Notes under the pieces: generated by a model | Databases searched by the model: none | What the model was told of the DNA's origin: nothing | What the model saw: only the letters and a program-made list of their open reading frames with translations | Source: a virus | Length of the DNA stretch: 64,000 bases | Strand: one strand, 5' to 3' | IMG/VR virus record: IMGVR_UViG_3300022723_000177 | Location: 1-64,000 of that record | Shown: positions 1,636 through 47,732 of the stretch, in pieces | Numbering within the stretch: position 1 is the first letter of the stretch | Layout of the letters: each line of letters begins with the position of its first letter | Position numbers and translations under genes: made by a program

Positions 1636-1645
1636 GAGCGGGCGC

Positions 1646-8029: not shown

Positions 8030-8053
8030 ACTCAGCCACCAGGAGGCCTGTTC

Positions 8054-10838: not shown

Positions 10839-10868
10839 GCTGAACCCTGATCCGAAAGGAACAAGGCA

Positions 10869-11780
10869 ATGGCCAACATCAGTCTTGGTGAAGTCGATGT
10901 CGCCATCCCGGAGTTCTGGTCCTCGGTCGCCCTCGGCGCCCTGAAGGCGAACACCGTAATGGCGCAGCTCGTCCGGCGCGACTTCGACGCAGAGGTCGCC
11001 ACGGTCGGCGACACGGTGAATGTGATCCGACGTGGCTCGCTTGTTGTCAACGACAAGTCGATCAACTCGGGCGTCACGCTCCAGAACCCCACGCAGACGA
11101 AGCTCCCGATCGTCCTTGACCAGCACAAGGAGGTGTCCTTTCTCATCGAAGACATCGCCAGTGCGAAGGCCATCGACGACGCTGTGAACTTCGTCGAGGA
11201 TGCCGCGATCGTCATCGCGGAGGATGTGGATCTCGCGCTACTCAACCTGTACGTGAACGCCGGCTCGTTCGTCGGCGCGTTCACGGACGACCTCGATGTC
11301 CCTGTCGTGGTGGCTGCTCGGCGCGCCCTGAACGACCAGAAGTGCCCGCAGCGCGGACGCGTGCTGGTTGTGGGGTCCGGTCCGGAGGCTTCGCTGCTGA
11401 ACAAGGTCGAGTTCACGAGCTCGGACTTCGGCGGCGACGTGAGTCGTATGGCCGTGATCGAGGCGAACCTCGGTCGCAAGTACGGCTTCGACTTCTTCAT
11501 GGACCAGCAGACGGTCGAGGCGAGCGCCAACCAGGTGAGCAACATCGCGTTCCACCGCGATGCGTTCGTCCTGATCACGCGGCTCCTGCCCATCCCGCCC
11601 CCGAGCACCGGCGCCCAGGCGTCAGCGGTGTCGGAGGATGGCGTCGCGATGCGCGCGATCCGGTCCTACAACATTCAGCAGCTCGGCATGCAGATGACGA
11701 TCGACATCCTCTACGGTGTCAAGGCTCTGCGCGCTGACACGCACGCTGTCGAGGTCCGGTCGAACAACGCGACCAGCTAG
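10869..11780 (+). CDS. Major capsid protein (putative)
   Basis: 303-aa ORF with strong RBS (gaaaggaacaaggcaATG) immediately after the scaffold gene. Canonical position. Confidence 0.7.
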   Translation: MANISLGEVDVAIPEFWSSVALGALKANTVMAQLVRRDFDAEVATVGDTVNVIRRGSLVVNDKSINSGVTLQNPTQTKLPIVLDQHKEVSFLIEDIASAKAIDDAVNFVEDAAIVIAEDVDLALLNLYVNAGSFVGAFTDDLDVPVVVAARRALNDQKCPQRGRVLVVGSGPEASLLNKVEFTSSDFGGDVSRMAVIEANLGRKYGFDFFMDQQTVEASANQVSNIAFHRDAFVLITRLLPIPPPSTGAQASAVSEDGVAMRAIRSYNIQQLGMQMTIDILYGVKALRADTHAVEVRSNNATS

Positions 11781-16644: not shown

Positions 16645-17012
16645 CCAACGGGCACGACAAGCATCAGGTTCTAGACTACACTCCCGAGGAGATCGCTCTC
16701 TTCGTGTGCCTGATCCAAAAGAGGCGCTCCTACGAGCTCCTTGAAACCACCCAAGCCGGTGGTGTCAGCACTGCGTTCGGGTTCACGGGCGACGCCAAGA
16801 TCATGCAGACCTATGCCAAGAGCATCGGTCTCGGGAAGGACGCGTCGAATCTGAAGAGCGGCATTCCTGCTGAGTTCCGTCAACTCATGCGGGAGGTGAA
16901 CAAGGGCAAGCTAGAGAAGGCGAAACAGGGTGGCGACCGAAGTCGGAACACTACTGGTCAGGCTCGAAGCCCGCGTCGACCAACTCGAGCGCGGCCTCGC
17001 CAGGGGCAATAG
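16560..17012 (+). other. Probable -1 frameshift extension (gpT part of a G-T tail chaperone fusion)
   Basis: Frame 0 has no stop from before 16560 through 17012 and overlaps the 3' end of the G gene (frame 1), as in the conserved siphovirus G/GT arrangement. The slippery site was not pinpointed. Confidence 0.4.
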
Positions 17013-19374
17013 GAGCATCTCCGGGTTCGAGCGCCGCTCGCGGCGTTCGTTCTCCAACGTAGGGAGGAGCCTCTCCCGCCTCGGTCGGCGCTTCACAGGT
17101 ATCGGCGCGCTCATCGGCGCCGCGGCCGCGACTTTCGGCGCCGCCCAGTTCGTATCCGCCTCGATCGATGCCGCTTCTGCGGTAGACGAGTTCGAGATCC
17201 GTCTTGCTGCGCTCACCGGGTCACAACGCATTGCCGGCCAGGCCCTAGCCGAGCTCACACAGTTCGCGGCCGGAGTCGCGCCGAGCTTGCGCGATATCAT
17301 CGAGGCCGCGGCCACCCTCGGATCGGTCGCGCTGGGCTCCGCAGAACGCATCAACGTCCTCACCAGGACCGCGGTCAACGTGGCGGCGATCACCGGCCTG
17401 ACACTCGAGCAGGCCTCGCAGAATTTGCAGCGGACCCTATCGGCAGGCATCGGCGCCGCGGACCTCTTCCGCGAGCGTGGCGTCCGCGCGATCGTCGAGG
17501 CGATCTCCGAGATCCCGAATCTGATCGACGCGCCTCTCGCAACAGTGGAGACCGCACTCCAGAAGGTCTTCGGCCCCGACGGGGTCTTCGGCCAGGCGGG
17601 CCAGGCATTCGCTGACACCCTCCCCGGCGCGTTGTCGGTCACGGGCGACGCGCTGTTCCAGCTGCAGAGCGCATTCGGAGAGGCGCTCTCGCCGGTGATC
17701 ATCACCCTCCTACGCGACCGCATCATCCCACTCTTTGAGCGCCTGACCAAAGCAATCAGCAACAACGAGGCCAGGATCCGGGACGGACTGGTCGGCGCGT
17801 TCAACACGCTGCTGAGCGTCGTACGTACGGTCCTTCCTCTCATGACCGACGCACTCAGTATCACGGTGCTCGTATTTCGGACCGCCGACACCGTGGTGAA
17901 GAGCATCTTTAACTCCGTGAATCAGCTCGACGCGGGCATCGCGAGAGTGCTGAACAAGGTGTTCCTTCTCTCCGATGAGGGGCTCGCCGCCAACGAGGCC
18001 GCAGCGAGGGCCTCCCAGGAAGCGTCTAACCAGTCCGAGCGCGACCTACTCGCAGCCGAGCGTGCCTTCGACGATCTACGGACCACAGTAGATGCGATTG
18101 TTGAAGGACTCCAGGACATCAACCCCGACGGCGTTGAAGCGGCAGCCGACGCGGCTGAGCGCGCCGCCGCCCAGGAGGGAGCCCTCCGGGTGGTGCTCAC
18201 GACGCTGCAGGCAGCGGTCGACCCACGTGCCGCGCGTCAGGCGCTACAGGCCCAGACCTCGATCCAACGGACGCTGGACCAGCAGAACCAGGCGCTGATC
18301 CGGCGCCGGTCGACGCAGATCGCTGAGCTCTTCACGGTCGAGCGCCAGACGCGCCAGCTCGCGGAGCAGGTCGCCACGGTCACGCGCCTCGCTGAGGTGG
18401 AGGTGGAGCGTGCCCGGAACGCCCTCGCCACGGCGGAGGCCGCCGACGTGGGCCTCCTGACAGCCGAGCAGCAGGAGCAGCGCGATGCCGCGATCCTGGT
18501 CCTCCGGCGGAACATCCTCGCGGCCGAGGAGCGCCTACAACGAGTCCGCGCCACCGGCGCTCGTGCGAACCAAGTTGCGACCCAACGCGAGGCCGAGGCG
18601 GCCGACAGGGTTGAGACCACGCGGGTTCGAACCGGGGCGACCCTGCAGGCGCTGACGAACACCATCGACGCGGTTCGCGAGCTAGATGAGCGACGCGCCC
18701 AGGTGCTACAGACGCAGCTTGACATCTTGCAGGCACAGCCGGGTACGTTGGAGCAGTTCAGTGAACGGCTGACCCAGCAGCTGGATAAAGCCAATGACGA
18801 GCTGAACAAGCTATCTGCCAAAAGGGACGACACTTTCATCGCGCTCGGGTCCGTGCTGCAAACTTCGATCGCGGACGCGCTTTCGGGAGCTTTCGACGAA
18901 GGCGGCATCAACTTCGCAGAATCCTTGGCGGATCTGTCCGGTACCCTTCTACAGGAATCCTTGACCGAGGTCACGGAGGATCTAGCCGATTCCCTCGACT
19001 CGCTCTTCGAGAATATCGGGGGCGGCGTTGGGGCCGGCATCGCTGGAGCACTAGGCATCGCCACAGGGCTGATTGGCAGTCTGCTCAGGGACACCGAGCG
19101 GGATACCGGCGCCTCCCAGGTCGCGTCGATTGTGGACGATGCCACACCCCTCCGCGGGGTGGTGCGCGGAGACACGAACGTGCCGATTTTCCAGATCGGG
19201 CGGCAGATTCAAGAGGCGTTCGCTACTACTGAGAACCTGCTGCGGCAGGGCAACGAGACGCGGGATCAGATTCTGCGGGCTCTGATTGGGAGCGAGTCCA
19301 ACGCCGACACCACGGATCAGGTCGACGATGCATTCCAGCAGCTGCTGGGCGCTGAGTCGTCGAGCCTGGCATAG
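16930..19374 (+). CDS. Tail tape measure protein
   Basis: 814 aa, Ala/Leu-rich helical protein following the G/GT chaperones. GTG start at 16930. Confidence 0.85.
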   Translation: MATEVGTLLVRLEARVDQLERGLARGNRSISGFERRSRRSFSNVGRSLSRLGRRFTGIGALIGAAAATFGAAQFVSASIDAASAVDEFEIRLAALTGSQRIAGQALAELTQFAAGVAPSLRDIIEAAATLGSVALGSAERINVLTRTAVNVAAITGLTLEQASQNLQRTLSAGIGAADLFRERGVRAIVEAISEIPNLIDAPLATVETALQKVFGPDGVFGQAGQAFADTLPGALSVTGDALFQLQSAFGEALSPVIITLLRDRIIPLFERLTKAISNNEARIRDGLVGAFNTLLSVVRTVLPLMTDALSITVLVFRTADTVVKSIFNSVNQLDAGIARVLNKVFLLSDEGLAANEAAARASQEASNQSERDLLAAERAFDDLRTTVDAIVEGLQDINPDGVEAAADAAERAAAQEGALRVVLTTLQAAVDPRAARQALQAQTSIQRTLDQQNQALIRRRSTQIAELFTVERQTRQLAEQVATVTRLAEVEVERARNALATAEAADVGLLTAEQQEQRDAAILVLRRNILAAEERLQRVRATGARANQVATQREAEAADRVETTRVRTGATLQALTNTIDAVRELDERRAQVLQTQLDILQAQPGTLEQFSERLTQQLDKANDELNKLSAKRDDTFIALGSVLQTSIADALSGAFDEGGINFAESLADLSGTLLQESLTEVTEDLADSLDSLFENIGGGVGAGIAGALGIATGLIGSLLRDTERDTGASQVASIVDDATPLRGVVRGDTNVPIFQIGRQIQEAFATTENLLRQGNETRDQILRALIGSESNADTTDQVDDAFQQLLGAESSSLA

Positions 19375-22426: not shown

Positions 22427-23083
22427 ATGGCAACTGCATCAGCTCTCTTCACGATCAAGCTGGGAACCAGCACGACTGTCACGACCGACCTGATCCTTCT
22501 CGGGAGCGGATCGCAGGGGGACCCCTACGCGCAGCGAGTGCTCACACACCCAGACGGAGCAAACTTCTCGCCGATCGTTTACTGGAACAACCCCGATCGA
22601 AGTTTCAACATCGACAACGATGTGCTCCGCGCCCCCGTCAACCGGACGGTTCTGACCGAGACCGGAACACGCGTGATCAGCCTTGATCGCTTTGAAGAAG
22701 ACACGATCATCACGGAGATCTGGTCTGCGGCAGAGGGCCTGAAGTTCGCTATGCCGACGTTCTTGTTCCGGCAGCTCTACGAGTACTACGTGAATCGCCC
22801 CGCGCTTTCGATCACAAACCAAGAGTACATCCAGTGGCAGCCACGCGACAAGAATTCGAACACCTACAACGTGATCATCCTACGTCTCGCGGTTGGCGGC
22901 GGCGACCAGAACAACCAGCTCTTCGACATCGCCGACTTCCGTCCTGTCGGCGGCGTAAATGACCCGCGCGGAAACGCGGGGACCATCTTCGGTCCGCTAG
23001 ATGACCTTGACGTGACGCCCACCGGCGTGATCGATCGCTCGGTAGTGTTTCAATTCAAGATCGTGAACACGGTGACGCCGTAA
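22427..23083 (+). CDS. Tail protein
   Basis: 218 aa, tightly packed in the tail module. Confidence 0.5.
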   Translation: MATASALFTIKLGTSTTVTTDLILLGSGSQGDPYAQRVLTHPDGANFSPIVYWNNPDRSFNIDNDVLRAPVNRTVLTETGTRVISLDRFEEDTIITEIWSAAEGLKFAMPTFLFRQLYEYYVNRPALSITNQEYIQWQPRDKNSNTYNVIILRLAVGGGDQNNQLFDIADFRPVGGVNDPRGNAGTIFGPLDDLDVTPTGVIDRSVVFQFKIVNTVTP

Positions 23084-24738
23084 TGGGCCGCACACTCACC
23101 CCGTTGCTGAACGCCGCCATTCTGGACATGGTGCGAGAGCCCGGACACCAGCTGTTCATTTACGACGTCCGGAGCTCGTCTACCACCATCGGCGACATCG
23201 TGCGCGAGGCTTCGCTCGACCCGCTCTCGGAAGCGACGGACTTTTCCGGCGTGAACCCGTCCACCGTCGTCGAAGAGACGGCCGGGAACTACACGAATCA
23301 AGGGATCGCGAGCTCGAGCGTGACAGTCCGCATCGTGGACGAGAACGGGTTGCTCGACCCGCTGCTTGTGTTGGATGACCCACTCGCCGCAGGACGCTGG
23401 TTCCGTAAGGGGAACGTCGTACGTCTGGCTGAAGGTGACCTTAGGGTGCCGACCAGCGATTGGCCGATCACGTTCACCGGCGAGATCATCGGTCAACCCG
23501 GCTACGTGCGCGACCGCGAGGGGCAGTCTGTGCTGGAGTTTCGCGCGCTCTCGCGCGAGCGACACTTTCTGCAGTACAACAACACCTCCGAGAGCTTCCC
23601 GGCAGCGACCACGTATCGCGCCATGGCAGAATCCATCGCGGAGAATGACATGGGGCTCGATCCGGACGAGATCGAGTTTGCTCAGTTCGGCACCACCGCC
23701 AGCAGCTTGGCCGTCACGCAGTTTGTGGATGAGCCTCCGCTGGTGTCCATCGCGAAGCTGATGTTCGTGGACGGCTTCATGCCGCGCTTCAACGGCGAAG
23801 GCAAGCTGACCCAGACGACGGGCACGATCGGAGCCGCGGCCACGCGCGTCTACGACGACGCCGGCCTCATCCGCCGCATCGAGCGGCCGTTCTCGGACGT
23901 GGAGCCGGCGACCAGCGTATGTGTTGTCGGGCTCGAGGACACGCTCACCCGCATCGACCAACCGAAGCAGGATCTGCGGAACACGACGATCACCACCGGC
24001 TACTTCACTCAGGACGAGGAGATCGAGATCTACTGGAGCGACGACCGCTCGGTCGTCGCCGACAACGTGGAGTTCCGCGTGAACCGCTCAGTGAACGCCG
24101 GCATCACACTCCTCGGCGGAAACGAGGGCTTCACGTTGATCCCTGCACCGAGCGATCCGCTGAAGCCCGCGGTTGGATCGATCGGGGCGCGCATTGAGAT
24201 CACCACCGGCTTCACCGCCGGCCTGATCATCACGATCACCGGCGCATACATCGCCGCGTCATTCATCCCCGATACGGTGGTTTCGCTCATCGGTGGGAGC
24301 ACTATCTCGGTGGGCCGAGCGATTCAGGCTGCGCTACTCGCGTCGATTCTGATCATCATGACCAGGCTCGGTCGCGGCGACTACACCTTCGCGGGCAGCC
24401 CGCTCGAGTACGTCTACAGGGAGATCCGTGCGTGCGCTCGGGCCGAAGATGTAGGGGCCTTCGACCTGAACGAGATCGTGGTCGAGAACCACTTGGTCAG
24501 CACCCAGAGTCTCGCCGACGCGTTGGCCCGCGACGTGCTCCTGCGCGAGAATGCCGCCCAGAACCCCCGCCGCGTCTCCGCGATCTACGACCCCGCCCTA
24601 GAGGTGGACGACATCTTCGAGGTGTCGGGGCGCCGCTATCTGATCGAGCGCATTCGCCGAAACCTCGGACGGGGCGTCGGCGACGTCGGACTCGCTGAGT
24701 ACCAGTGTGTGGAAGTCACACCAGGGGTGGCGCCGTGA
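23083..24738 (+). CDS. Tail protein (551 aa)
   Basis: ATGG overlap with the upstream stop. Confidence 0.55.
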   Translation: MGRTLTPLLNAAILDMVREPGHQLFIYDVRSSSTTIGDIVREASLDPLSEATDFSGVNPSTVVEETAGNYTNQGIASSSVTVRIVDENGLLDPLLVLDDPLAAGRWFRKGNVVRLAEGDLRVPTSDWPITFTGEIIGQPGYVRDREGQSVLEFRALSRERHFLQYNNTSESFPAATTYRAMAESIAENDMGLDPDEIEFAQFGTTASSLAVTQFVDEPPLVSIAKLMFVDGFMPRFNGEGKLTQTTGTIGAAATRVYDDAGLIRRIERPFSDVEPATSVCVVGLEDTLTRIDQPKQDLRNTTITTGYFTQDEEIEIYWSDDRSVVADNVEFRVNRSVNAGITLLGGNEGFTLIPAPSDPLKPAVGSIGARIEITTGFTAGLIITITGAYIAASFIPDTVVSLIGGSTISVGRAIQAALLASILIIMTRLGRGDYTFAGSPLEYVYREIRACARAEDVGAFDLNEIVVENHLVSTQSLADALARDVLLRENAAQNPRRVSAIYDPALEVDDIFEVSGRRYLIERIRRNLGRGVGDVGLAEYQCVEVTPGVAP

Positions 24739-26558: not shown

Positions 26559-26609
26559 CCCGTAGATCGGTGATCGGGTAGAATGCCGGCTCACCCACGA
26601 GGACCAAAT

Positions 26610-27290
26610 ATGCCGATCACGCTCAGACTACTGCTTCTCGCCCTGGTACTGCTTTGCGGCTCCGCCTATACCTGCAACGACGGACCCCGCCGCGCGGCTC
26701 TAGTGGGCGATACCACGAACGCGTGGCAGACAGGGATCCAGTCGAACTTCGTGTGGACCTTCGACGACTTCACGGTAGATGGAGAGACGCTCTACGAGCA
26801 GTTCACGAGCGGACACCTGGACGCAGCGCTCGCTCCAGGAGCGCCCTATGACGTGATCCACATGCAGTTCGGTCACGCGTCACTCCCTCCCTTTGGCGCC
26901 CAGGCGACGCCGGCACAGTTTCAAACGCAGATGGTCGTTGTGTCTCAGCACTTGCTGCAGTACGCCGATCGGGTCGTGGTGACCGTGCCGCCGGAGCGTG
27001 CACCGATTTGCCCGGTGCCGCCCGACGTCAACCCTGATCCCGCAATCGGCCCGTGTTGGGAGGTGGCGGTGGACAGCCTCGACATCGCCGACTACCGACC
27101 CTCCTTGCTGCTCATCCCTACGCTGAGCCCTGAGATCCGCTTTGGCAAGGACCTACACAACCTGATCAACCGCAACGCCTGCTACGACGACAGCGCGGAC
27201 CGCAACCACTTCGATGCCACCTGCAACGATGAGGTCGAGCAGCACATGCGGGACCTGTTCACCGTCCTGTACGCGGAGGGCCTTGAGTGA
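26610..27290 (+). CDS. Secreted or lipoprotein with a degenerate SGNH/GDSL-hydrolase-like pattern
   Basis: MPITLRLLLLALVLLCGSAYTC signal sequence. GDTTNAW (block-I-like, Thr in place of Ser) and C-terminal DRNHFD (DxxH catalytic-dyad-like). Confidence 0.45.
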   Translation: MPITLRLLLLALVLLCGSAYTCNDGPRRAALVGDTTNAWQTGIQSNFVWTFDDFTVDGETLYEQFTSGHLDAALAPGAPYDVIHMQFGHASLPPFGAQATPAQFQTQMVVVSQHLLQYADRVVVTVPPERAPICPVPPDVNPDPAIGPCWEVAVDSLDIADYRPSLLLIPTLSPEIRFGKDLHNLINRNACYDDSADRNHFDATCNDEVEQHMRDLFTVLYAEGLE

Positions 27291-28516
27291 CTATCCTGCG
27301 TGGGGTGATCGTCCCCAGCCACAACGACCTGCCTGGGCTCACTACCGGTGATCCGCACACGCAGTACGCGTTCCTGGCGGGGCGCGCTAGTGGGCAGACG
27401 CTCATCGGCGGTACGGCTGTGGGCGAGGATCTGACCCTCCAGGCGTCCACCACGCAGAACGCCACCAACGCGGTTCGGCTCGATACGCGGTTGGCGATGG
27501 ATGAGACGTGGCACGCTACCGGCGCGCTGTACCCCTTCACCCTTGGTGGCACCTACACCGAGACGGCGCTGGCCGCGACCGGCACCTTCAATCTGAACGG
27601 TACGGTCAACGTTAACACCATCGGCTTTCTGTACGACATCGTGCTGGCCAACATGACGTTCAACCAACAGGTTGCGCCGCTGATCGCCGCGTTCCAGCTG
27701 TTTCGCGCCAACGTGACTATCCAGAACAACGGCGCCAACACGCTCATGACGGCGATCGTCTTGAACGGCACGGTCATCCACAAGACCAACGCCACGGGTG
27801 GGGTGTGCCTGATCTCGGGACGCTACGAGGGCTCGCGCTCTGCCCCGCGCTACAACGCAGACACTAGCGGAGACACCCTCACCCACACCCAAGGCTCGCT
27901 GGGCTTCAACTACCAGCCCGAATTCACGACCGTTGCCGGTGCCGCCGTGAACATGGGCCCGCTGATTGGGTTCCAGTCTCTCGGTCCCACCGTGCAGGGA
28001 TCTAGTCCAGGCACCGTTACGTACAGCGACTATTGGGGTTTCTCGATGAGCCACCCCTCGGCCCTGGCCACAACCGCGGGCACAGTGGCCGCGTTTCAGT
28101 CATTTCTGCAGCCGGGCACCAACCGATTCTTCCTACGCAACACTGGGGCCGCACGCTCCAATTTCGGCGGCGGCAACGTCTTCAACATCGGTGAGCTGGC
28201 AGGCGTTGTCTCGGTGGATCCTGCGCTTGGGTCCAGCCAGAACAACTACGCTGGGTGGGTTGGCTCGACCACGCTGCGCATCACTCCTTCGGCGGCCATT
28301 TCACTCACCGGCCTCAGCGCTACCACGGCCGAGGTTGGCACCATCCTCCACATCCTGAACATGTCGGCGGTCAATACCCTGACGCTTGTTCACGAGTCAG
28401 GGGCTAGCTCCGCAGCCAACCGTTTCTTCTTTTCAACTGGCGCGAACCTGGTGATCCAACCGCTCCAGATTGTTACCGTCATGTACACCAACACTCGATG
28501 GAGGCGAATCGAATGA
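27287..28516 (+). CDS. Tail fibre protein
   Basis: N-terminal SHNDLPGLTTGDPHTQY matches the conserved phage tail-fibre N-terminal motif (HxxL.GL..GD.H.QY). Gly/Thr/Asn-rich beta repeats follow. GTG start overlaps the upstream TGA. Confidence 0.7.
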   Translation: MTILRGVIVPSHNDLPGLTTGDPHTQYAFLAGRASGQTLIGGTAVGEDLTLQASTTQNATNAVRLDTRLAMDETWHATGALYPFTLGGTYTETALAATGTFNLNGTVNVNTIGFLYDIVLANMTFNQQVAPLIAAFQLFRANVTIQNNGANTLMTAIVLNGTVIHKTNATGGVCLISGRYEGSRSAPRYNADTSGDTLTHTQGSLGFNYQPEFTTVAGAAVNMGPLIGFQSLGPTVQGSSPGTVTYSDYWGFSMSHPSALATTAGTVAAFQSFLQPGTNRFFLRNTGAARSNFGGGNVFNIGELAGVVSVDPALGSSQNNYAGWVGSTTLRITPSAAISLTGLSATTAEVGTILHILNMSAVNTLTLVHESGASSAANRFFFSTGANLVIQPLQIVTVMYTNTRWRRIE

Positions 28517-28668
28517 GCGGACACCGCGCGGTACCCGAGGAGCTGTTCAAGGCAATCCACGACCTGCTGATGAGCGAGCTGCCGATGGCGAAGGCTGAGC
28601 CCTATGTTCAGGCTCTCCGCCAGTGCGACTCGGTCAAGATCACGGGCACCGCTGACCAGGAGGAGTAA
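28513..28668 (+). CDS. Small hypothetical protein (51 aa)
   Basis: ATG at 28513 and TAA at 28666-28668 abutting the next ATG. Below the ORF-track length cut-off. Confidence 0.3.
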   Translation: MSGHRAVPEELFKAIHDLLMSELPMAKAEPYVQALRQCDSVKITGTADQEE

Positions 28669-29195
28669 TGGCCTTCATCGTCGCCTTCTTTACGACCGAC
28701 GGCGCCCCCGCCACGGGCCTGAGTCCGACCGTCCGCATTCGCCGGACGGACACGGGTGCGCTCGTGGAGACGGACACGGCGATGACGGAGTTGGGCGACG
28801 GCGGCTACGCCCGCAGCTTTGTCCCGTCGCCCTCGCTCGAGTACGCCATCCGAGCCGACAAGGGCTCGGGCAATGACTTCGAGCGCTACGTCTACGGCTA
28901 CTTGAGCGGCGCGGAGGCTGACCCGTCGGCCATCGCGGACGCGGTCTGGGACGAGGCGCTCGCTGGGCACGGAACGCTCACGACTACCGGAGGAGCCATG
29001 ACGCTCCTGCTCGGCGCGCTACGCAATGCCCAGCTGGACACCTCGAACTCCGCGCAGTGGGTGATCTTGGTGAAAGATCCGGCGGATGACAACACGGTGT
29101 TGCTGACCATGAATCTCGACGACCAGGACGGGAACGCGATCAACGACGCGAACCCGATCCAAGGTACGTTCGTGGCGAACAAGGAGCCAGTTTAA
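28668..29195 (+). CDS. Hypothetical tail-associated protein
   Basis: 175 aa ORF with caggaggagtaATG RBS. Confidence 0.5.
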   Translation: MAFIVAFFTTDGAPATGLSPTVRIRRTDTGALVETDTAMTELGDGGYARSFVPSPSLEYAIRADKGSGNDFERYVYGYLSGAEADPSAIADAVWDEALAGHGTLTTTGGAMTLLLGALRNAQLDTSNSAQWVILVKDPADDNTVLLTMNLDDQDGNAINDANPIQGTFVANKEPV

Positions 29196-29281
29196 CGCCG
29201 CCGCCCCCGTAGGTGGGGTGGCGCCCACTATGATGATCTTCCCGCTAGCCCGATTCACCCGCGGACTCTAAGGAGTCGACA

Positions 29282-29818
29282 ATGCTGATGCCCGTACCCG
29301 ACGTGGGCTTCCCGATGGATGGGGGCAGCGGCGGGGACCTACCCAATTCAGGCGTGGTGAAACTCGCCCTACCCGCACCCCTGGTCCTCAAGGTCCCCGG
29401 GAGGGTGAAGCTTCGGGTCGTCTCTGATACACTGGGGGACATGGCCGGAGTATCCGTTCCGAACGCGCCTGAGACTTTCGAAATCAAGCGCAACGATCTG
29501 CTGCCCACGTACGACGTCGAGGTCTTCGACGCCGACGACCAGCCCGTGGATCTGTCCGCGGCGACGGACGTGTTCTTCACGATGCAGAGCGACGACGCGA
29601 CGCTGAAGATCAATCGTCAGCCGGGCTCCGTAGAGCTCGGTTCAGACAGCGTGACCCAGAGCGTGCTGCGTTACCCGTGGTCCGCCGGAGACACGGACGA
29701 GAGCGGCCGCTTCATCGCGGAGTTCGAGGTGGTCTTCGCCGCAGGCAAGCGAACCTTCCCCGCCTCTCGCCTCCAGGCCCTCGAGATCCAGATCATCGAC
29801 GACCTTGACGCGACCTAG
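29282..29818 (+). CDS. Hypothetical tail-associated protein (Ig-like?)
   Basis: 178 aa ORF with aaggagtcgacaATG RBS. Confidence 0.5.
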   Translation: MLMPVPDVGFPMDGGSGGDLPNSGVVKLALPAPLVLKVPGRVKLRVVSDTLGDMAGVSVPNAPETFEIKRNDLLPTYDVEVFDADDQPVDLSAATDVFFTMQSDDATLKINRQPGSVELGSDSVTQSVLRYPWSAGDTDESGRFIAEFEVVFAAGKRTFPASRLQALEIQIIDDLDAT

Positions 29819-29832
29819 AGAGGGGCCCGCCC

Positions 29833-30081
29833 GTGCCCGAGCAGACGACCGACCAGAAGATTGACCGGATGCTAGAGACGATCGCCCGGATCGACGAACG
29901 CACCAAGAACATCGCAGAGAACTCCAAGGAGAGACTCGCGGCCGCGCACGCGCGGATGGACGGCATCAGCGAGGACGTGCGCGAAGTACGCCGGGCGAGC
30001 GTCAAAGCCGGAACCGCGACCGGCGGAGGCACAGCCGCCATTCTCGCCCTGATCCAGTATCTGTTCCGGGGTGACCTGTGA
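29833..30081 (+). CDS. Holin-like small membrane protein (putative)
   Basis: 82 aa with a charged N-terminus and a single C-terminal hydrophobic segment (GTATGGGTAAILALIQYLF). It sits immediately upstream of the endolysin and overlaps its start. Confidence 0.45.
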   Translation: MPEQTTDQKIDRMLETIARIDERTKNIAENSKERLAAAHARMDGISEDVREVRRASVKAGTATGGGTAAILALIQYLFRGDL

Positions 30082-30617
30082 GCCACAGCTTCGCATTCCA
30101 CGCGGCGCTCGACTTCTCCCTGAAGTGGGAGGGCGGCTACGTGAATCACCCGAACGATCCGGGCGGCGAGACCAAGTACGGAATCTCCAAGCGCGCCCAT
30201 CCCGACGTCGACATCGCCGCGCTCACGAAGCAGCAGGCGGCCGACATCTACCACAAGAAGTACTGGACGAAGATCCGCGGCGACGAGCTCCCTCGAGGCG
30301 TTTCCATGGCGGTCTTCGACTACGCGATCCACGGCGGTGTGTCGCGCGCCATCCGAGGTCTCCAGCGGGCCGTCGGGGGCGTCGCGGTCGATGGGCAGCT
30401 CGGGCCCATCACGCTGGGGGCCGCCCGGCAGGCCGTACACGACCTAGGCAACGCGGAGCTTGCGTACCGGGTCGTCGACCGCCGGGTGGCCCACCTCGCC
30501 GGCCTCGTGCGCCGCGCACCCGAGCGCTACGGCGTGTTCCTGCACGGCTGGCTTCGCCGCACCCACGATCTCGTGCGCGAGCTCGCCAGCACCCCTGAAT
30601 TCAACACGGGGACCTAA
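30078..30617 (+). CDS. Endolysin: glycoside hydrolase family 108 lysozyme with C-terminal peptidoglycan-binding domain
   Basis: FSLKWEGGYVNHPNDPGGETKYGI is the GH108 N-terminal signature. The C-terminal region resembles PG_binding_3. Confidence 0.85.
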   Translation: MSHSFAFHAALDFSLKWEGGYVNHPNDPGGETKYGISKRAHPDVDIAALTKQQAADIYHKKYWTKIRGDELPRGVSMAVFDYAIHGGVSRAIRGLQRAVGGVAVDGQLGPITLGAARQAVHDLGNAELAYRVVDRRVAHLAGLVRRAPERYGVFLHGWLRRTHDLVRELASTPEFNTGT

Positions 30618-30621
30618 GAGG

Positions 30622-31524
30622 ATGCACGCCCTTGTACTCAGCGGCGGGGGAGCGCTGGGTGCCTGGAGCGCCGGCGCGGCCTCCGAGATCGTCCGCTTCT
30701 TCGCCACCACCCACGAACCGATCGCGCTCATCTCCGGGACCTCCGTCGGCGCGGCCAACGCGGCGAAGCTGGTCCAGGACGGGCCCGACCCGCTACTCGA
30801 GCTCTGGCGCAACGTCACCCGCAGGGACGTCTACGTGCGAGGTGCCGCGGGCCCACTGACCTCGGCCTACCGGCTCCTGCGGGGGCGCCCTCTCTACGAC
30901 ACCCGGCCCCTCGCCGCACTGCTCGGTCGCGAGCTCAGCGCGGCCAAGATCGCGGCCTCTCGCTGTGAGCTTCGCGTCCACGCAGCCGATCTAGGCTCCA
31001 GGGCTCTGGTGACCTGGACCGGGCGCTCTCCGGGCCTCCTGGAGGCAATCCGCGGATCCATGGCGATCCCTGGGTTGTTCCCGCCGGTGAGGGTGGGCGG
31101 CCTGGCCCTGGTCGACGGTGGGGTCGTGGCCAACGCCCCGATCGGTCCGGCGATCCGCGCGGGGGCGACGCGCGTGACAGTCCTGCACCCGGACAACGAG
31201 GTGGTGGTGCCCCCGAGGGAGGCCGAGGAGCTGCTGCGGCCGAAGAGCGTCACGCCGGCCTGGCTGTGGGATCGCTCGGCACTTCGCACTTTGAAGCGCT
31301 CGCTCGAGATCATGTTGACCGGCCACATGGAGCGGGACATCCGGATGACGCGCATGGCGAATCAGCTCGACAGCTACCGGACGGTGCGGCTCGACGTGAT
31401 CTCGCCCCCGACCGCACTCGACCCAGACGGCGGAGCACTACTGGACTTCCGGCGCGAGGTTCTCGACGCCCTGCTCGAGCGCGGGATCCGTGACGGCCGG
31501 CGATGGATCCGGAGGCGCGCCTAG
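30622..31524 (+). CDS. Patatin-like phospholipase
   Basis: LVLSGGGALGAWSAG (oxyanion hole), GTSVG (GxSxG nucleophile) and a later DGG (catalytic Asp). Start at the internal ATG at 30622, with a GAGG-type RBS upstream and a 1-nt overlap with the endolysin stop. Confidence 0.8.
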   Translation: MHALVLSGGGALGAWSAGAASEIVRFFATTHEPIALISGTSVGAANAAKLVQDGPDPLLELWRNVTRRDVYVRGAAGPLTSAYRLLRGRPLYDTRPLAALLGRELSAAKIAASRCELRVHAADLGSRALVTWTGRSPGLLEAIRGSMAIPGLFPPVRVGGLALVDGGVVANAPIGPAIRAGATRVTVLHPDNEVVVPPREAEELLRPKSVTPAWLWDRSALRTLKRSLEIMLTGHMERDIRMTRMANQLDSYRTVRLDVISPPTALDPDGGALLDFRREVLDALLERGIRDGRRWIRRRA

Positions 31525-31533
31525 TTTCTCTCT

Positions 31534-31615
31534 TGGCGCCGGCGGGGATCGAACCCGCGTTTCCCAGTGAGTAGCGACCTCACACAGGGTGTCCTAACCG
31601 CTAGACGACGGCGCC
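31534..31615 (-). tRNA. tRNA-like element with atypical anticodon arm
   Basis: The minus-strand sequence folds by eye into a 7-bp acceptor stem GGCGCCG/CGGCGCC, a D-arm GTCT-AGCGGTTA-GGAC, and a T-arm GCGGG-TTCGATC-CCCGC (GGTTCGATCC box). The anticodon region does not fold canonically, and no CCA is encoded. Confidence 0.5.
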
Positions 31616-31782
31616 ACAGGATCATTCGGCGGGGCAGGCTCGAGGTCGCTGCACGACTCGAAGAAATGGCAGCGGCTGCAGAGCAGCTTGCATTTCCTGG
31701 GCTCGAGTTCGGCCCCGCAGTTCGGGCAGATCACTTCACATAGGCAGAGCTGATGGTCGCGAAGCGTTCCGACCACGCCCAT
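31594..31782 (-). CDS. Small zinc-ribbon protein
   Basis: CPNCGAELEPRKCKLLCSRCHFFESC. ATG at 31782. Confidence 0.4.
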   Translation of the reverse strand: MGVVGTLRDHQLCLCEVICPNCGAELEPRKCKLLCSRCHFFESCSDLEPAPPNDPVAPSSSG

Positions 31783-32081
31783 TCGTTCATGACGTAGCAC
31801 TGAAACTCGTGGTCTTCGAGCTCGAGGTTGCACTCGGTGCAGAGTTCCAGCTGCCTGATCGCGCGCTCGTAGTCCTTGGAGTGGTCCTCGGGCTCAGGCA
31901 GGTCGAAGAAGAGGTTGACGTCTTCTCCGTGCTCGAGCGCCTCGAGGCGCGCCTTGAGCTGAATGCGGACTTCGTCGCGCCAGCCGTCCACGGCCTCTCC
32001 GTACTCGTGGTCGTGGTCGGCGGCGTTGGCGCGGAGGATCTCCAGGATCCCGGCCTTCTGGTAAGTGAGCTTGCTCTTCAT
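31731..32081 (-). CDS. Hypothetical acidic protein (116 aa)
   Basis: Coding-like composition. First gene of the leftward operon's distal end. Confidence 0.5.
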   Translation of the reverse strand: MKSKLTYQKAGILEILRANAADHDHEYGEAVDGWRDEVRIQLKARLEALEHGEDVNLFFDLPEPEDHSKDYERAIRQLELCTECNLELEDHEFQCYVMNEWAWSERFATISSAYVK

Positions 32082-32425
32082 TGTCGATTCCTCCGTGCAA
32101 TCTGTCTAGCGATCGCGTTGATGTGATCTGGGAACCCCCGGTGGTGGAAGCCGGTGCCGGCCTTCAGTGCCTCGAGGTCCATGATCTTTTCGAAGTGCCA
32201 GACCCCGGCATCCTTCGCCTCGTCGAAGCGCTCGATCAGCTCAAGGCAGAGAGCGTCGAACGGCGAGTCGGGGATCGCTGAGATCGCGTGTTCGTAGTAG
32301 AGCCGCGACAAAATCGCGTAGGCATTGACGAGGCGGCGGAGACTCCCTGGGAAAGGGGGACCAGAGACGAGGGACACGAAGTACTCCTCGTACGCCTCCG
32401 CCGCGTCGTCAAGCCAGTCGCTCAC
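32078..32425 (-). CDS. Hypothetical protein (115 aa)
   Basis: ATGA-coupled to the downstream gene. Confidence 0.5.
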   Translation of the reverse strand: MSDWLDDAAEAYEEYFVSLVSGPPFPGSLRRLVNAYAILSRLYYEHAISAIPDSPFDALCLELIERFDEAKDAGVWHFEKIMDLEALKAGTGFHHRGFPDHINAIARQIARRNRQ

Positions 32426-32516
32426 GGCGCCCAGTACATCCAGGTGCTAGTGAGTAGCGGAAGAACGTGTTCGGCGAAGTAGATACCGAACGCCGCTCCA
32501 ACGAGCATCTTCGTCA

Positions 32517-33038
32517 TCAGAAGATGCTCCGGCCCGCTTCTGCGAAGCAGGGGCCGACCGTGTCGAGATCCGTGCCGAACTCACCCGTGCCGGTGGTACA
32601 CTGCCCGCGTCCGGGGGTGAAGTTGCCCGACGCGTCCGTACCGAAGTAGCCCCACGACTGGACGATCCCGTCCCCATCGATGTCGGCCTGGGCGTCGATG
32701 GTGAACTGCTGTCCGACCACCGCGACGGCGTAGTTGAAGTACACGTTGCCCGTAGGCGCCCAACCGATCCTGTCGAAATCGACGCTGGGGGTCCACGGCT
32801 GCTTCTCCGAAGCGAGCGCGGTAGTGGGGTTCACCGCAGCCGCGACGTAGCGGCCGAACTCCGCCTCGTACGAGACCTCGGCCGTCCGGATCGCCGCGAT
32901 GTTCACCTTGCCTTCGGTGCTCTTCGCGGCCTTCTGGAACTTCAGAAAGTTCGGGATGGCGATGCTCGCCAGGATGCCCACGATTGCGACGCACACCATG
33001 AGCTCGATCAGAGTGAAACCGTTCTGTCGACGTACCAT
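32517..33038 (-). CDS. pilA: Type IV pilin (PilA-like major pilin with class III prepilin signal)
   Basis: MVRRQNG|FTLIELMVCVAIVGILASIAIPNFLKFQ gives the prepilin peptidase site G|F, Glu+5 and a hydrophobic alpha-1 helix, closely matching the Myxococcus xanthus PilA N-terminus. GGAGGA RBS 7 nt upstream of the ATG at 33038. C-terminal Cys pair. Confidence 0.85.
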   Translation of the reverse strand: MVRRQNGFTLIELMVCVAIVGILASIAIPNFLKFQKAAKSTEGKVNIAAIRTAEVSYEAEFGRYVAAAVNPTTALASEKQPWTPSVDFDRIGWAPTGNVYFNYAVAVVGQQFTIDAQADIDGDGIVQSWGYFGTDASGNFTPGRGQCTTGTGEFGTDLDTVGPCFAEAGRSIF

Positions 33039-33077
33039 TTTCGATCCTCCGTCTTCCGTCAATGTAGCCGTGTTCGG

Positions 33078-34141: not shown

Positions 34142-34550
34142 TGCTTCCTTCTTCGCCTCCTCCCGCTCCGGACGGCGGGCCCGCGCCTTGCGCTCCTTGC
34201 TCTTCCCGGGCGGCTTGCGCCGCGCCTTCTTCGAACCTCTTGCGGCCACTGTGTCCCCCTTTCAAGGATACGTTTCGGTGCGCGGCTTCAAAAACCTGAG
34301 AGATCTTTTCGTCGCCATCCAAGAAAAGTCTCTCCCGCTTCTCGCGCTGGATCTTCTCGTGGATCTCGACCGGGGTCGCCGCGAACGCGAACATGGTTCC
34401 GTATGGAGTGTAGAGATCCCATCCCGCGAGACTCCCGCCCGAGTAGATCGGCACCACCATGAACCTGTCCTCGAGCGTGACCGCGTTTGGTACCAGCGGC
34501 GGCCACTCCGCCTCCGCCAGCAGCTGCTCGAGACGCTCGTCGGGAGTCAT
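34125..34550 (-). CDS. Hypothetical protein
   Basis: MTPDERLEQLLAEAEW...; ATG at 34550 abuts the radical-SAM gene stop. Confidence 0.45.
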   Translation of the reverse strand: MTPDERLEQLLAEAEWPPLVPNAVTLEDRFMVVPIYSGGSLAGWDLYTPYGTMFAFAATPVEIHEKIQREKRERLFLDGDEKISQVFEAAHRNVSLKGGHSGRKRFEEGAAQAAREEQGAQGAGPPSGAGGGEEGSSFSGA

Positions 34551-35479
34551 GACACGAACATCCCACACGATGCGGCCACGTCTTCACCGACACGCTCGAT
34601 CACTTTGATCTTCGGCTTGTATCCAGCGAACATATGGAGCTCGCGCTCGATGGTCTGCCCGTAGTGTGTGCGTGCCACCCATGAGGACTCTTCGCTGTGC
34701 CCCTCGGCCGGCGGGTTATACCTGACGAAGGTGAAGTCAGCGCGGAGCCCCGCCTCGCGGACCGCTTTCGCGACGGCGACTGCGTCCGTCAGCGAATCGT
34801 TCTCGCCGCGGATCAGCGCGTAGTGGATCCGCACGATCTTCTTCGAGTGCTGCTGCCACTCCGCCAGGAGATCGAGCGCCATTGACGGATCCATCGCGCG
34901 CGGAAGCCAACGCCTTCGGAAGTCGGGGTCCACAGAGTAGAGTGAGTAGTAGATCTCCGGCTGCACGAACGGGAACATCTGCGGAAGCGTGATGTCCTCG
35001 AGCCCGAGCGCCTGGTCCTCGCGCTTCTTCGGCATGATCGTCGACACCAGGAACCGCGGCATCAGTCCGAGACCGCGGCCGGCGTCGTAGAGACCCTTGA
35101 AGATGTCCTGGCTCTTCTCGCGGAACACTTGGCTGTCGAGCGGCTCGCCGCGGGCCATGAAGTTGTAGTGGACCACGCGCGCACGAATGCCCCCGTCTAG
35201 GGCGCGGTCGCGCTCGATCGGGTCGAACACGTCGTAGAGCACGGCGCGTGCCTGCTCGAGGATCCGCGTGACCTCCAGATCCCGGTACCTGGTCTGCCCG
35301 GTCTGGGTCAGGTGACACATGCGGCAGGCCTGGGCGCAGCCCGTCTGAGTCGAGAGGTAGCAGGCGACGTAGTCGTCGTGGCGTCTGACGTAGCGAGCCT
35401 CGATCTTCCCGAGTGCCCTCTCCCACACCAGGTTCACGCTGTCATCAATCTCGCTGTCTTGCCGGATGTAGCCGCTCAT
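34547..35479 (-). CDS. Radical SAM enzyme, RlmN/Cfr-like (putative RNA C-methylating enzyme)
   Basis: ACYLSTQTGCAQACRMCH carries the CxxxCxxC 4Fe-4S/SAM motif in the RlmN/Cfr context (SSQxGCxxxCxFC). C-terminal ASCGMF resembles the conserved RlmN second-cysteine AACGQL motif. 310 aa, shorter than cellular RlmN. Confidence 0.7.
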   Translation of the reverse strand: MSGYIRQDSEIDDSVNLVWERALGKIEARYVRRHDDYVACYLSTQTGCAQACRMCHLTQTGQTRYRDLEVTRILEQARAVLYDVFDPIERDRALDGGIRARVVHYNFMARGEPLDSQVFREKSQDIFKGLYDAGRGLGLMPRFLVSTIMPKKREDQALGLEDITLPQMFPFVQPEIYYSLYSVDPDFRRRWLPRAMDPSMALDLLAEWQQHSKKIVRIHYALIRGENDSLTDAVAVAKAVREAGLRADFTFVRYNPPAEGHSEESSWVARTHYGQTIERELHMFAGYKPKIKVIERVGEDVAASCGMFVS

Positions 35480-45539: not shown

Positions 45540-47732
45540 TTGGCGGCCCGTCTCGCCTCCGGTGGGGCGGGCCGCATTGCTGAAGGACACCAGGTGAATA
45601 GCACCTACCCGACACACGAAGACGTTCTCCGTGTCCTGCACGCCCAGGGCTCGAAGTGGATCACCCTTGAAGTACTCGAGGCACACACGCGGATCGAACG
45701 AGACTGGCTCACAGCGGAAGGGGGCGACGAGACCTACCCCCGTATCGGCTTCAACAACGGTGTCTCCTGGTTCTTCGACAAAGACCGCCGTCCCGACATG
45801 AAGCACGGCTCCGGCAAGCAGAAGACTCACTGCGCTGGGGGCGTGCGCCGCACGCTGCTCGGGGACCTGGAGAAGGACACGCTGATCCTGTTCGAAGGTG
45901 AGCGCGACTGGCTCACGGCGCTGTCGCTCGGGTTCGACAACGCGATCTGCGCAGGCGGGATCCTGAACCTCGACGAGCACCAGTTCCAGCAGCTGGCGCA
46001 GAAAGCCGAGGTCGTGGTGTTCTTCGACAACGATGAGGAGGGGGTGAACGGAGCAAAGATCGTAGCTGCCCGTCTTCAGGACCACGGCTGTCTCGCCGCG
46101 AAGTGGGTCGTGCCGCCGATCGACGGCGACTTCTCCGAGTGGGTCGAGGGCTTCGAGGATGATCCGCGTGGCACTGTGCTGCACCGCATGACGAGCCAGG
46201 CGGAGAGGCTGAAGAAGGCCGACGCGAAGAAGATACTGAACGCCGGGACCAAGGCCAAGAAGAAAGACGACATCGTCGAGCATCCTTCGGATGAGTTCAC
46301 TACCTCGAGCGGCGACCTCGTCACATCCGTCTGGAGGCCGACCGATCCCGAGCACCCTCACCACGTAGACCTCGGAGGCAAGGCGGTGTTCGTGCGCCAC
46401 GACCTGGCCGCGTCCGAGAAGGCCGGGAGCCTGATCGTCGACTACATCAGCCGCTACACCGAGGCCCCAACGGAGACTGATGAGTTCGACGAAGTACCGG
46501 AGATCTACGGAGGTGGTCAGCGCGCGAAGAGCCACGCCCCAGACCGTCCGCCTGTCGTGGTACCTCTTGGAGGCCAGACCGTCAGCGACCGGATCATGGT
46601 ACTGCCGTCCGGGGCTCGCGAGCATGGATCGAGCGAGAAGCTCTGGGATGACGTGGTTGAGCTCATCGAGAAGTACTTCGTCTGTGCCCCGGCATTTGTT
46701 CACGCCATGGCTGCTTACACGTTTCTGACCTACCGCTATCGCGATGCGCGCTTCGAGGTGATCCCGTACCTCAGGGTGATCGGCCAGGCGGGAAGCGGAA
46801 AGACTCGATTCGCCCGCATCATGAAGGAGCTCTGCTTTCGCAGCCTGTTCGTCACGGGTATGCGTTCGCACCACATCTACCGAATCATCACCGGTTTCAA
46901 CGCCGGGGCCACGCTCGTGTTCGAGGAGTTCGACATGGGGACGCGCGGCGAAGAAAAGATGGAGTGGACCCGTATCCTCAACGCCGGGAACCAGTACGGC
47001 GTGAAGATCCCGCGGATGGGCGGCAAGAACTTCAGCGACGTCGAGTACTTCGACATCTTCGGTCCGAAGGTGATCTCGATGCACGAGGAGTTCGATGACG
47101 AGGGCCTGGCGCGTCGCTGCTTCGGAGTCGTGCTCGGGAAGATGGAGGTTCCCAAAGAGAAGTACTTCGCCGCTCTGCCGAACATCTTCTACCAGGAGAC
47201 GGCGATCCTCCGCGAGCGTTTGCTCGGGTGGCGATTCGCCAAGCGTGGGTTGCCTACGCGCACGCTCGGTGAAGAGCTCCAAGCTGGGATCAAGGGCGAG
47301 GTCTGGCAGACGGTGTTCCCGATGCTGGCCATGGTCCCCGCGGCTCGCCCCGAGGCGACAGCCGCGATCCTCGGGCTGGCGCAAAAGAGCCAGGCGCAGA
47401 TGAAGCTGGTGCGCGCCACCTCGCCCGTCGCTCAGGTGCTCGAGTCCACGATCTATGCTCATGACGATGACCGGGGCTGGACCGAGCTCCAGAACGTGCT
47501 CACCGAATTGCAACTGCGGGACCCCAACGCTAGGTGGACCACCCAGAAGGTCAACAAGTGTCTGCGAGAAGCGGGCCTAACCCCGCGCCGCACCATGAAG
47601 AAGATCGGCGAGCACATCTGGGTCGTCGATATTGACGACACCTTTCGTGGCGCCGTGGCCACGTACAAGCTGGAGATCGAGCAGCTCGCTCAAGAGAATG
47701 CGCGGGAGACTGCGCCGCAGGAGATCATGTGA
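45540..47732 (+). CDS. DNA primase (Toprim domain) fused to a P-loop NTPase (D5/VirE-like primase-helicase)
   Basis: Toprim LILFEGERDWLT ... VVVFFDNDEEG (E and DxD). Downstream VIGQAGSGKT Walker A. TTG start at 45540; the start is uncertain. Confidence 0.75.
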   Translation: MAARLASGGAGRIAEGHQVNSTYPTHEDVLRVLHAQGSKWITLEVLEAHTRIERDWLTAEGGDETYPRIGFNNGVSWFFDKDRRPDMKHGSGKQKTHCAGGVRRTLLGDLEKDTLILFEGERDWLTALSLGFDNAICAGGILNLDEHQFQQLAQKAEVVVFFDNDEEGVNGAKIVAARLQDHGCLAAKWVVPPIDGDFSEWVEGFEDDPRGTVLHRMTSQAERLKKADAKKILNAGTKAKKKDDIVEHPSDEFTTSSGDLVTSVWRPTDPEHPHHVDLGGKAVFVRHDLAASEKAGSLIVDYISRYTEAPTETDEFDEVPEIYGGGQRAKSHAPDRPPVVVPLGGQTVSDRIMVLPSGAREHGSSEKLWDDVVELIEKYFVCAPAFVHAMAAYTFLTYRYRDARFEVIPYLRVIGQAGSGKTRFARIMKELCFRSLFVTGMRSHHIYRIITGFNAGATLVFEEFDMGTRGEEKMEWTRILNAGNQYGVKIPRMGGKNFSDVEYFDIFGPKVISMHEEFDDEGLARRCFGVVLGKMEVPKEKYFAALPNIFYQETAILRERLLGWRFAKRGLPTRTLGEELQAGIKGEVWQTVFPMLAMVPAARPEATAAILGLAQKSQAQMKLVRATSPVAQVLESTIYAHDDDRGWTELQNVLTELQLRDPNARWTTQKVNKCLREAGLTPRRTMKKIGEHIWVVDIDDTFRGAVATYKLEIEQLAQENARETAPQEIM

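Follow-up and report, generated by a model that had tools for sequence, protein, structure and literature searches.

A patatin-like acyl hydrolase gene directly after a GH108 endolysin gene in a siphovirus-like phage: a possible lysis accessory

We analyzed a 64,000-nucleotide stretch of viral DNA (positions 1 to 64,000 of the IMG/VR record IMGVR_UViG_3300022723_000177, hereafter called the window), in which the late operon ends with three genes encoding a holin-like protein, a GH108 endolysin, and a patatin-fold serine acyl hydrolase. The third protein is a member of the patatin family, and not of the LysB, spanin, or CapV family. Its gene lies directly after that of the endolysin, an arrangement that is a singleton among the loci examined, and not a recurring design. 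We tentatively propose, with a probability that we place somewhat short of even, that the patatin is a late lysis accessory, which would hydrolyze the envelope phospholipids after the holin fires; on this proposal, the late operon would end in a lysis cassette composed of the three genes. Locally, a role in lysis is favored because of the probable translational coupling to the endolysin gene, the occupation of the slot that often accommodates spanins, the intact active site, the probable diderm host, and the absence of a recognizable spanin. Comparatively, it is not favored, because the arrangement is unique, the relatives of the patatin reside elsewhere, and one of them coexists with a spanin-like gene.

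The patatin gene (30622-31524, + strand) encodes a 300-residue putative phospholipase or esterase, as assigned by Pfam, the sequence motifs, and the fold. The Pfam Patatin profile (PF01734) matches with E = 4.6e-26 and 92.6 bits (cutoff 27.7), over profile positions 1-191 of 191. An earlier note on this DNA had described a 300-residue patatin with an intact oxyanion hole, a GTSVG nucleophile motif, and a DGG motif. The present analysis agrees with this description, except that in the oxyanion motif the usual Lys/Arg is Leu: the motifs are S7-G-G-G10-A-L-G13, G39-T-S41-V-G43, and D165-G-G, and the S7, G8-10, G39, S41, G43, D165, and G166 residues are invariant in an alignment of 13 sequences (the patatin and 12 homologues), so that both the catalytic Ser and the catalytic Asp are conserved throughout. 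The GTSVG and DGG motifs align with GTSMGA and DGGMV of PlpD. The homologues start at the same point as the patatin, which supports its ATG start. The AlphaFold2 model built from the 13-sequence alignment has a predicted local distance difference test (pLDDT) score of 86 and a predicted template-modeling (pTM) score of 0.86. A Foldseek search with this model retrieves PlpD, CapV, CapE, and potato patatin, with E values of 1e-13 to 1e-10, a probability of 1.00, and TMq values of up to 0.72 (full-length CapV). Among the viral proteins of BFVD, this fold is encountered mainly in those of giant viruses, and the patatin has no match in PHROG. Its assignment as a CBASS effector, RssA, or another defense lipase was considered and rejected: in NCBIfam, CBASS_lipase scores 34.9 bits against 200 and RssA scores 26.3 against 272, and no partner gene is present. 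No CD-NTase (cyclase) is encoded beside the patatin gene, which is part of a phage genome rather than of a defense island, and has the GH108 endolysin gene and a tRNA-like gene as its neighbors.

The endolysin gene (30078-30617, + strand) encodes a soluble, 179-residue, muramidase-type GH108 protein with a PG_binding_3 domain, and the previous annotation as a GH108 lysozyme with a peptidoglycan-binding domain is thereby confirmed. The evidence comes from both Pfam (Glyco_hydro_108, PF05838, E = 1.2e-25, 90.2 bits, cutoff 21.2; PG_binding_3, PF09374, E = 4.5e-09, 36.8 bits, cutoff 24.6) and PHROG (family 315, endolysin, E = 1.1e-50), and the protein contains the WEGGY motif (KWEGGYVN). It lacks a hydrophobic N-terminus, and hence a signal-anchor-release (SAR) or signal sequence, and therefore a holin is needed for its export. 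Relatives of the endolysin exist in 803 GenBank phage records, in which diderm genera are the most frequent of the named hosts. An outer-membrane step is therefore probably needed in lysis, and the host is probably a diderm of the lipopolysaccharide type. A Gram-negative, lipid-rich host had been suggested; the diderm part of this suggestion is probable from the hosts of the endolysin relatives, whereas the lipid-rich part has no support in the sequence.

How would the endolysin be exported? The first gene of the three (29833-30081, + strand) encodes an 82-residue holin-like protein, composed of a coiled-coil N-terminal region and a weakly hydrophobic, Gly/Ala-rich C-terminus. It had been described as a holin-like protein with a single transmembrane segment. 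The holin-like character gains some support from synteny, while the transmembrane segment is doubtful: the 19-residue C-terminal segment GTATGGGTAAILALIQYLF has a mean Kyte-Doolittle value of about 1.15 (hand calculation), and no segment of the protein reaches the transmembrane threshold of 1.6 over 17 residues. The sole family match is to PHROG 689, “holin”, which is weak (E = 0.004) and covers nearly the full length; Pfam, NCBIfam, and PADLOC yield no match. The protein carries a conserved ARIDERT...AH.R(I/M)D motif. A HMMER search over 1.84 billion representatives found only five relatives, with 80-94 residues and the same architecture, and all five retain the ARIDERT...AH.RID motif and the Gly/Ala-rich hydrophobic C-terminus. 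A word-index homologue search returned the protein itself only, and tblastn against phages returned nothing. Among the 5,565 open reading frames (ORFs) of 80 loci with a related GH108 gene, the only match is a 97-residue protein in locus L083 (5694-5987; 31% identity, pairwise E = 9e-09), which is encoded immediately upstream of the GH108 gene, and the conserved synteny of the holin-like and GH108 genes rests on this one relative with a known context. In addition, in L004, the locus with the best GH108 relative, the endolysin gene is preceded by that of an 89-residue coiled-coil protein, which has a transmembrane segment at its C-terminus. From these sequence features, the 82-residue protein is plausibly the membrane protein of the lysis cassette and a candidate holin.

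The three ORFs are co-directional on the + strand, at the positions given by the earlier note. The TGA stop codon of the holin-like gene and the GTG start codon of the endolysin gene overlap in the sequence GTGA, and only 4 nucleotides separate the TAA stop codon of the endolysin gene from the ATG start codon of the patatin gene, which is probably translationally coupled to the endolysin gene. Neither a promoter-like nor a terminator-like site was seen between the cassette genes. Because of the 4-nucleotide gap and the lack of a promoter- or terminator-like site of its own, the patatin is probably expressed only with the late genes. The GC contents at the third codon positions of the three genes (0.82-0.88, with 0.82 for the holin-like gene) correspond to the coding signature of the genome.

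The same region also bears on a different explanation, in which the patatin is a cargo (moron-type) gene acquired from a bacterium at the end of the late operon, and its adjacency to the endolysin is positional and not functional. As cargo, it could remodel or scavenge host lipids during infection, act as a toxin released at lysis, or serve in conflict or virulence. We regard this explanation as the main rival, somewhat less probable than a lysis accessory. The patatin gene is the final gene of the late operon, just ahead of the strand switch, and the end of a late operon beyond the lysin is a classic site for cargo. The GC content of the 2-kb cassette interval (0.68) is also slightly higher than that of the genome (about 0.63). 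On the other hand, the third-position GC content of the patatin gene matches those of the neighboring phage genes, and the short gap to the endolysin gene, with no regulatory-like site of its own, speaks against cargo. Moreover, no integrase was found, which makes lysogenic conversion doubtful and thus counts against cargo. Patatin-like phospholipases are listed among the Burkholderia prophage morons, and a prophage phospholipase of group A Streptococcus is known (PMC2920897), as a precedent for cargo.

Returning to the patatin as a lysis accessory, we searched for spanins. The earlier statement that no spanin pair is evident holds, for the cassette and its surroundings and for the window as a whole. 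In and beside the cassette there is neither a two-component spanin nor a u-spanin, and the patatin gene is followed only by the tRNA-like gene on the opposite strand. Across the window, no adjacent pair of an N-terminal-transmembrane protein and a lipoprotein was found; the window sequence is also present in two contigs, one of 53.6 kb from Logan and one of 65.8 kb from JGI, and about 1.8 kb of the latter falls outside the scanned window. Neither the cassette ORFs nor nine membrane-protein or lipoprotein candidates elsewhere in the window match a spanin family in PHROG, and the nine candidates match no PHROG family. In the loci of the GH108 relatives, small transmembrane ORFs are usually located beside the endolysin gene, and many of these loci have a transmembrane or signal/Cys ORF in the slot after the endolysin, as exemplified by the 93-residue ORF with an N-terminal signal and a Cys in L004. 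In the window, the patatin fills this slot.

Unpaired envelope candidates exist elsewhere in the window. Two adjacent genes on the + strand (3928-4107 and 4172-4462) encode small predicted lipoproteins of 59 and 96 residues, the latter with an LAFGC lipobox, and lie between the DNA invertase gene and the nuclease/terminase region. These two products were taken from the list of transmembrane segments; the strict lipobox scan missed both, and the relaxed scan kept only the 4172-4462 product. They may function in superinfection exclusion, or in lysis as outer-membrane factors of an unconventional kind. The early/replication region encodes, on its + strand, a 96-residue protein with an N-terminal transmembrane segment and a charged helix (56152-56442), a 74-residue protein with two transmembrane segments in a class II holin-like topology (57639-57863), and a 122-residue protein with one transmembrane segment (53410-53778). 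A 68-residue lipobox ORF is located at 54175-54381. The candidates are scattered, and none is paired in the manner of spanins; because small lipoproteins and N-terminal-transmembrane proteins are encoded elsewhere in the genome, the absence of spanins is not proven.

If the patatin functions in lysis, the following course of events can be envisaged. Late in infection, the basic, signal-less patatin would build up in the cytoplasm, alongside the endolysin. The holin-like protein would then permeabilize the inner membrane, and the endolysin and the patatin would both reach the envelope. There, the endolysin would cleave the murein, and the Ser41/Asp165 dyad of the patatin would deacylate glycerophospholipids, chiefly those of the inner leaflet of the outer membrane and of the damaged inner membrane. 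The lysolipids and free fatty acids released in this manner would destabilize the last barrier. The patatin would accordingly perform by enzymatic means the task that spanins accomplish by membrane fusion, and that LysB accomplishes in mycobacteriophages. It may either replace the spanins or merely assist lysis.

Where does the patatin reside before lysis? The protein is soluble, has a molecular mass of about 32 kDa and an isoelectric point of 10.8, and showed no signal peptide, transmembrane segment, or lipobox in a sequence scan; thus, it is predicted to be cytoplasmic as made. A cytoplasmic and very basic patatin would also suit an alternative, in which the enzyme degrades the inner membrane from inside and frees the endolysin, acting as the holin or together with it, with the 82-residue protein being a regulator or a membrane anchor rather than the hole-former. 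The poor quality of the 82-residue protein as a transmembrane candidate agrees with this alternative, and so does the fold of the patatin, which is closest to those of CapV and CapE. Both are defense effectors, which kill the cell through degradation of its inner membrane from the cytoplasmic side. However, no timing mechanism is evident for such a permeabilizer, and the family of the 82-residue protein keeps its C-terminal hydrophobic segment and occurs beside GH108 without a patatin in L083. We consider this alternative to be improbable.

A considerable number of observations weigh against a function of the patatin in lysis. At the level of the protein, the lack of an export signal means that the patatin would face the inner membrane prior to lysis unless it is regulated, and an active cytoplasmic phospholipase could harm this membrane prematurely. 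Moreover, Leu takes the place of the usual basic residue in the GGGx[K/R]G motif, both in the patatin and in the P0002, P0004, and P0007 homologues, including the closest one, and thus the substrate may be other than phospholipid. At the level of the genomes, we examined the 80 IMG/VR loci with a related GH108, as well as 80 viral patatin loci, retrieved from the 147 contigs in which an IMG/VR profile scan detected full-length relatives of the patatin (24-37% identity). No patatin is encoded within 6 kb of GH108 in any of the former. Conversely, in none of the 80 viral patatin loci is a relative of the GH108 endolysin of the window or of the 82-residue protein found within 8 kb of the patatin, and the same is true of relatives of T4 lysozyme, lambda R, T7 amidase, and the Amidase_2 protein of locus L087. 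A PHROG census of the patatin neighbors, which matched 91 families, includes no lysis family among the 25 commonest. The closest homologue of the patatin (43% identity) follows a metallophosphoesterase-like gene and not a lysin gene. In L154, the patatin ends a tail/structural operon before a strand switch, as in the window, but without a lysin.

A further point of the same kind comes from L087 (JGI 3300014205; phage-like, 42 kb, 70% GC). In the region 6468-10975, the L087 contig has a seemingly complete lysis cassette, consisting of a 96-residue transmembrane protein, a 103-residue holin-like protein with two transmembrane segments, Amidase_2, and a 227-residue i-spanin-like protein. The patatin of this contig (P0088) is encoded 2.4 kb downstream of the spanin-like cassette, past a helix-turn-helix-like gene. 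In addition, 47 of the 78 viral patatins are located in another conserved same-strand module, which consists, in this order, of a 300-500-residue protein (bigX), the patatin, and a 100-120-residue protein of a related family (smallX); examples are L144 (6083-7276), L148 (6874-8004), and L098 (8905-9264). The bigX and smallX proteins have no match in Pfam, PHROG, or the PDB sequences, and the arrangement looks like an uncharacterized viral patatin module. Many of the contigs, which belong to the IMG/VR loci L088-L167, are 100-500 kb long. The window lacks this family. Taken together, these surveys show that a patatin directly after an endolysin is rare.

Some contexts of the viral patatins could also point to the tail. 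In this explanation, the patatin is a tail or host-recognition accessory, namely a virion-associated or co-released lipolytic or esterase enzyme that acts at adsorption, at entry, or on surface lipids, and the holin and endolysin genes are merely inserted between the tail-fiber genes and the patatin gene. In L154, a homologue of a tail protein of the window (23083-24738) is encoded 2.7 kb upstream of the operon-closing patatin, with no lysin in between. Homologues of the tail-fiber-region proteins of the window are found within a few kb of the patatins in L108, L141, and L164, although the match in L141 is a short repeated motif. The families in the neighbor census include tail fiber, tail sheath, virion structural protein, and glycosyltransferase, together with homing endonuclease. 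In the window, however, two lysis genes separate the patatin from the tail genes, no structural domain is fused to the patatin, and the bigX/smallX module that flanks most of the viral relatives is missing. Our literature searches turned up no characterized virion patatin in phages, and a tail accessory is, in our estimation, improbable.

The survey provides additional grounds for cargo, as compared to those discussed above. The arrangement in the window is a singleton among the loci examined, and the contexts of the viral relatives are very varied. The cellular relatives of the patatin, named “NTE family / RssA” proteins, are widespread in many phyla, with identities of 40% or less over the matched segments. 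No phage precedent came from GenBank: tblastn with the patatin against the GenBank phages (50,697 records) yielded none at E = 1e-5, and one match at E values of up to 5. This match, MT835771.1 (“UNVERIFIED: Bacteriophage sp.”, 1-9094; L084), was rejected as a precedent, since it looks like a mis-filed high-GC bacterial fragment; by eye, its ORF translations include sequences like those of a permease, prephenate dehydratase, and acyltransferase, and none like those of phages. P0003 and P0033 were also discarded as phage contexts, as both are cellular loci.

The phage is siphovirus-like, with a genome of about 64-66 kb and 63% GC, and the window covers nearly all of it. The late genes form a single long block on the + strand, which the three-gene cassette closes. 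This block encodes the large terminase (6419-8029), the portal (8054-9895), the major head protein (10869-11780), a major-tail-like protein, the tape measure (16930-19374), and the tail and fiber proteins (up to 29818). Beyond it lies a minus-strand block (31731 to about 38200), followed by the replication genes for an SNF2 helicase, a Toprim primase, an RNA ligase, and a family A DNA polymerase. In the tail-fiber region, a 226-235-residue protein (26583-27290, + strand) has a strongly hydrophobic, signal-peptide-like N-terminal segment at residues 8-32, which is unusual for the product of a tail-module gene, and is without a convincing family match.

Close relatives of the phage were sought in several ways. 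Megablast with the 28000-33000 region against the GenBank phages gave no match, the IMG/VR scans with the patatin and with the 178-residue and 409-residue tail-region proteins gave no close phage relative, and a scan of JGI metagenome contigs with the patatin gave no match. The portal shares no more than about 30% identity with those of Pseudomonas and Rhizobium phages. As to the host, a scan of species genomes with the pilin-like protein described below found no relative, and the patatin-profile scan, with its relatives at 40% identity or less across many phyla, carried no host signal. Among the genes examined, no integrase was seen, only a small DNA-invertase-type serine recombinase (2894-3475, + strand; PHROG 125, E = 2.3e-55), and thus nothing points to a temperate lifestyle.

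The tRNA-like gene (31534-31615, minus strand) starts 10 nucleotides beyond the stop codon of the patatin gene. It scores 47.7 bits against the Rfam tRNA model (gathering score 29), while ARAGORN reports no tRNA across the window. The predicted fold is a cloverleaf whose anticodon arm has about 10 additional nucleotides and consists of 3 base pairs, an internal loop, 5 base pairs, and a 7-nucleotide loop, GUCGCUA. The gene might encode an unusual but working tRNA, or be a decoy or a remnant. The minus-strand block encodes a small protein that carries the N-terminal domain of DNA ligases (Nlig-Ia; 32078-32425), a type IV pilin-like protein (32517-33062; Pfam N_methyl, E = 2.3e-10; PHROG 3433, “pilin”, E = 1.6e-13), and a radical-SAM-like protein (34547-35479; 24.5 bits, below the Pfam cutoff of 29.5). 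The RNA ligase is encoded at 47729-48718 on the + strand. The Nlig-Ia protein, the radical-SAM-like protein, the RNA ligase, and the odd tRNA-like gene hint at RNA repair or modification functions.

What would a role of the patatin in lysis mean? It is possible, but in our view rather unlikely, that a holin-released patatin constitutes a further spanin-independent route for breaching the outer membrane of a Gram-negative host, beside the two-component spanins, u-spanins, and disruptin. If so, the patatin would be a Gram-negative counterpart of LysB, and the cassette would be the first in which an endolysin and a patatin act together, in contrast to the replacement of the lysin by a patatin proposed for phage WO, whose patatin-lysis hypothesis would gain indirect support. 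How phages that lack recognizable spanins cross the outer membrane is an open question, for which a lipolytic third lysis enzyme of a Gram-negative system would be a concrete and testable candidate. A small, soluble, and very basic lipase beside an endolysin could also aid endolysin-based antibacterials, for which the outer membrane is a limiting barrier. If the patatin is cargo, then the window provides an ordinary case of a late operon that has captured a gene at its end.

Finally, we compared the cassette with the known systems. In phage WO, a patatin-based lytic cassette has been proposed, in which a holin-like gene adjoins the patatin gene near the tail module (Bordenstein and Bordenstein 2022, PMC9203015). 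The lytic role was inferred from position only, and in the related Undavirus prophages GH108 is encoded beside a homologous holin-like gene (PMC9203015). The phage WO and window cassettes both combine a patatin with a small holin-like protein, in which a coiled coil is joined to a single hydrophobic segment. In the WO protein, the transmembrane segment is N-terminal and the coiled coil is C-terminal, and in the window protein the hydrophobic segment and the coiled coil stand in the reverse order. The WO patatin is proposed to replace the lysozyme, in a host in which peptidoglycan is undetected, while in the window GH108 and the patatin coexist, with the GH108 gene between the holin-like and patatin genes. 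Unlike phage WO, the window cassette has no adjoining ankyrin gene. The tblastn search with the patatin of the window against the 50,697 phage records gave no genuine phage match at E values of up to 5, the presence of the WO records among them being unchecked.

The spanins (Rz/Rz1 and u-spanin) and disruptin share with the patatin the slot right after the endolysin and, if the patatin functions in lysis, the same task. Disruptin is a small cationic peptide. The spanins are membrane-anchored, non-enzymatic fusion proteins, whereas the patatin is a soluble 32-kDa enzyme without a transmembrane segment or lipobox. In structure, the patatin comes closest to the CBASS phospholipase effectors CapV and CapE and to Pseudomonas aeruginosa PlpD (Foldseek E about 1e-13), with a similar size and a similar catalytic dyad. 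PlpD carries POTRA and beta-barrel domains, which are absent from the patatin of the window. The Burkholderia prophage islands PI-1710b-2 and PI-LB400-1 contain patatin-like moron genes, for which a virulence role has been proposed (PMC2920897). These morons are prophage cargo, whereas the patatin gene of the window is tightly joined to the late lysis genes, in a genome with no recognizable integrase.

The third lysis factors are more varied than had been thought, as the work on LysZ revealed (bioRxiv 10.1101/2025.06.24.661397). Among them, the mycobacteriophage LysB is a lipolytic serine hydrolase (a mycolyl-arabinogalactan esterase) that is encoded right after the endolysin, lacks an export signal of its own, and performs the third lysis step on the outer lipid barrier (PMC5707550, PMC8309991). 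The parallel with LysB drawn in the earlier note is valid for the position and the proposed role, and fails for the fold, as the window protein is a patatin and not a cutinase-type enzyme: its only Pfam match is Patatin, and the fold search returned patatins only. The likeness is therefore one of position and proposed role, and not of ancestry. LysB has a cutinase-like alpha/beta-hydrolase fold with a Ser-Asp-His triad. Its target in Actinobacteria is the mycolic-acid linkage, and its conservation extends over many phages, while the patatin of the window has a Ser-Asp dyad and is a singleton. Nevertheless, LysB is the closest proven functional analogue of the patatin, with a different fold and a different target.

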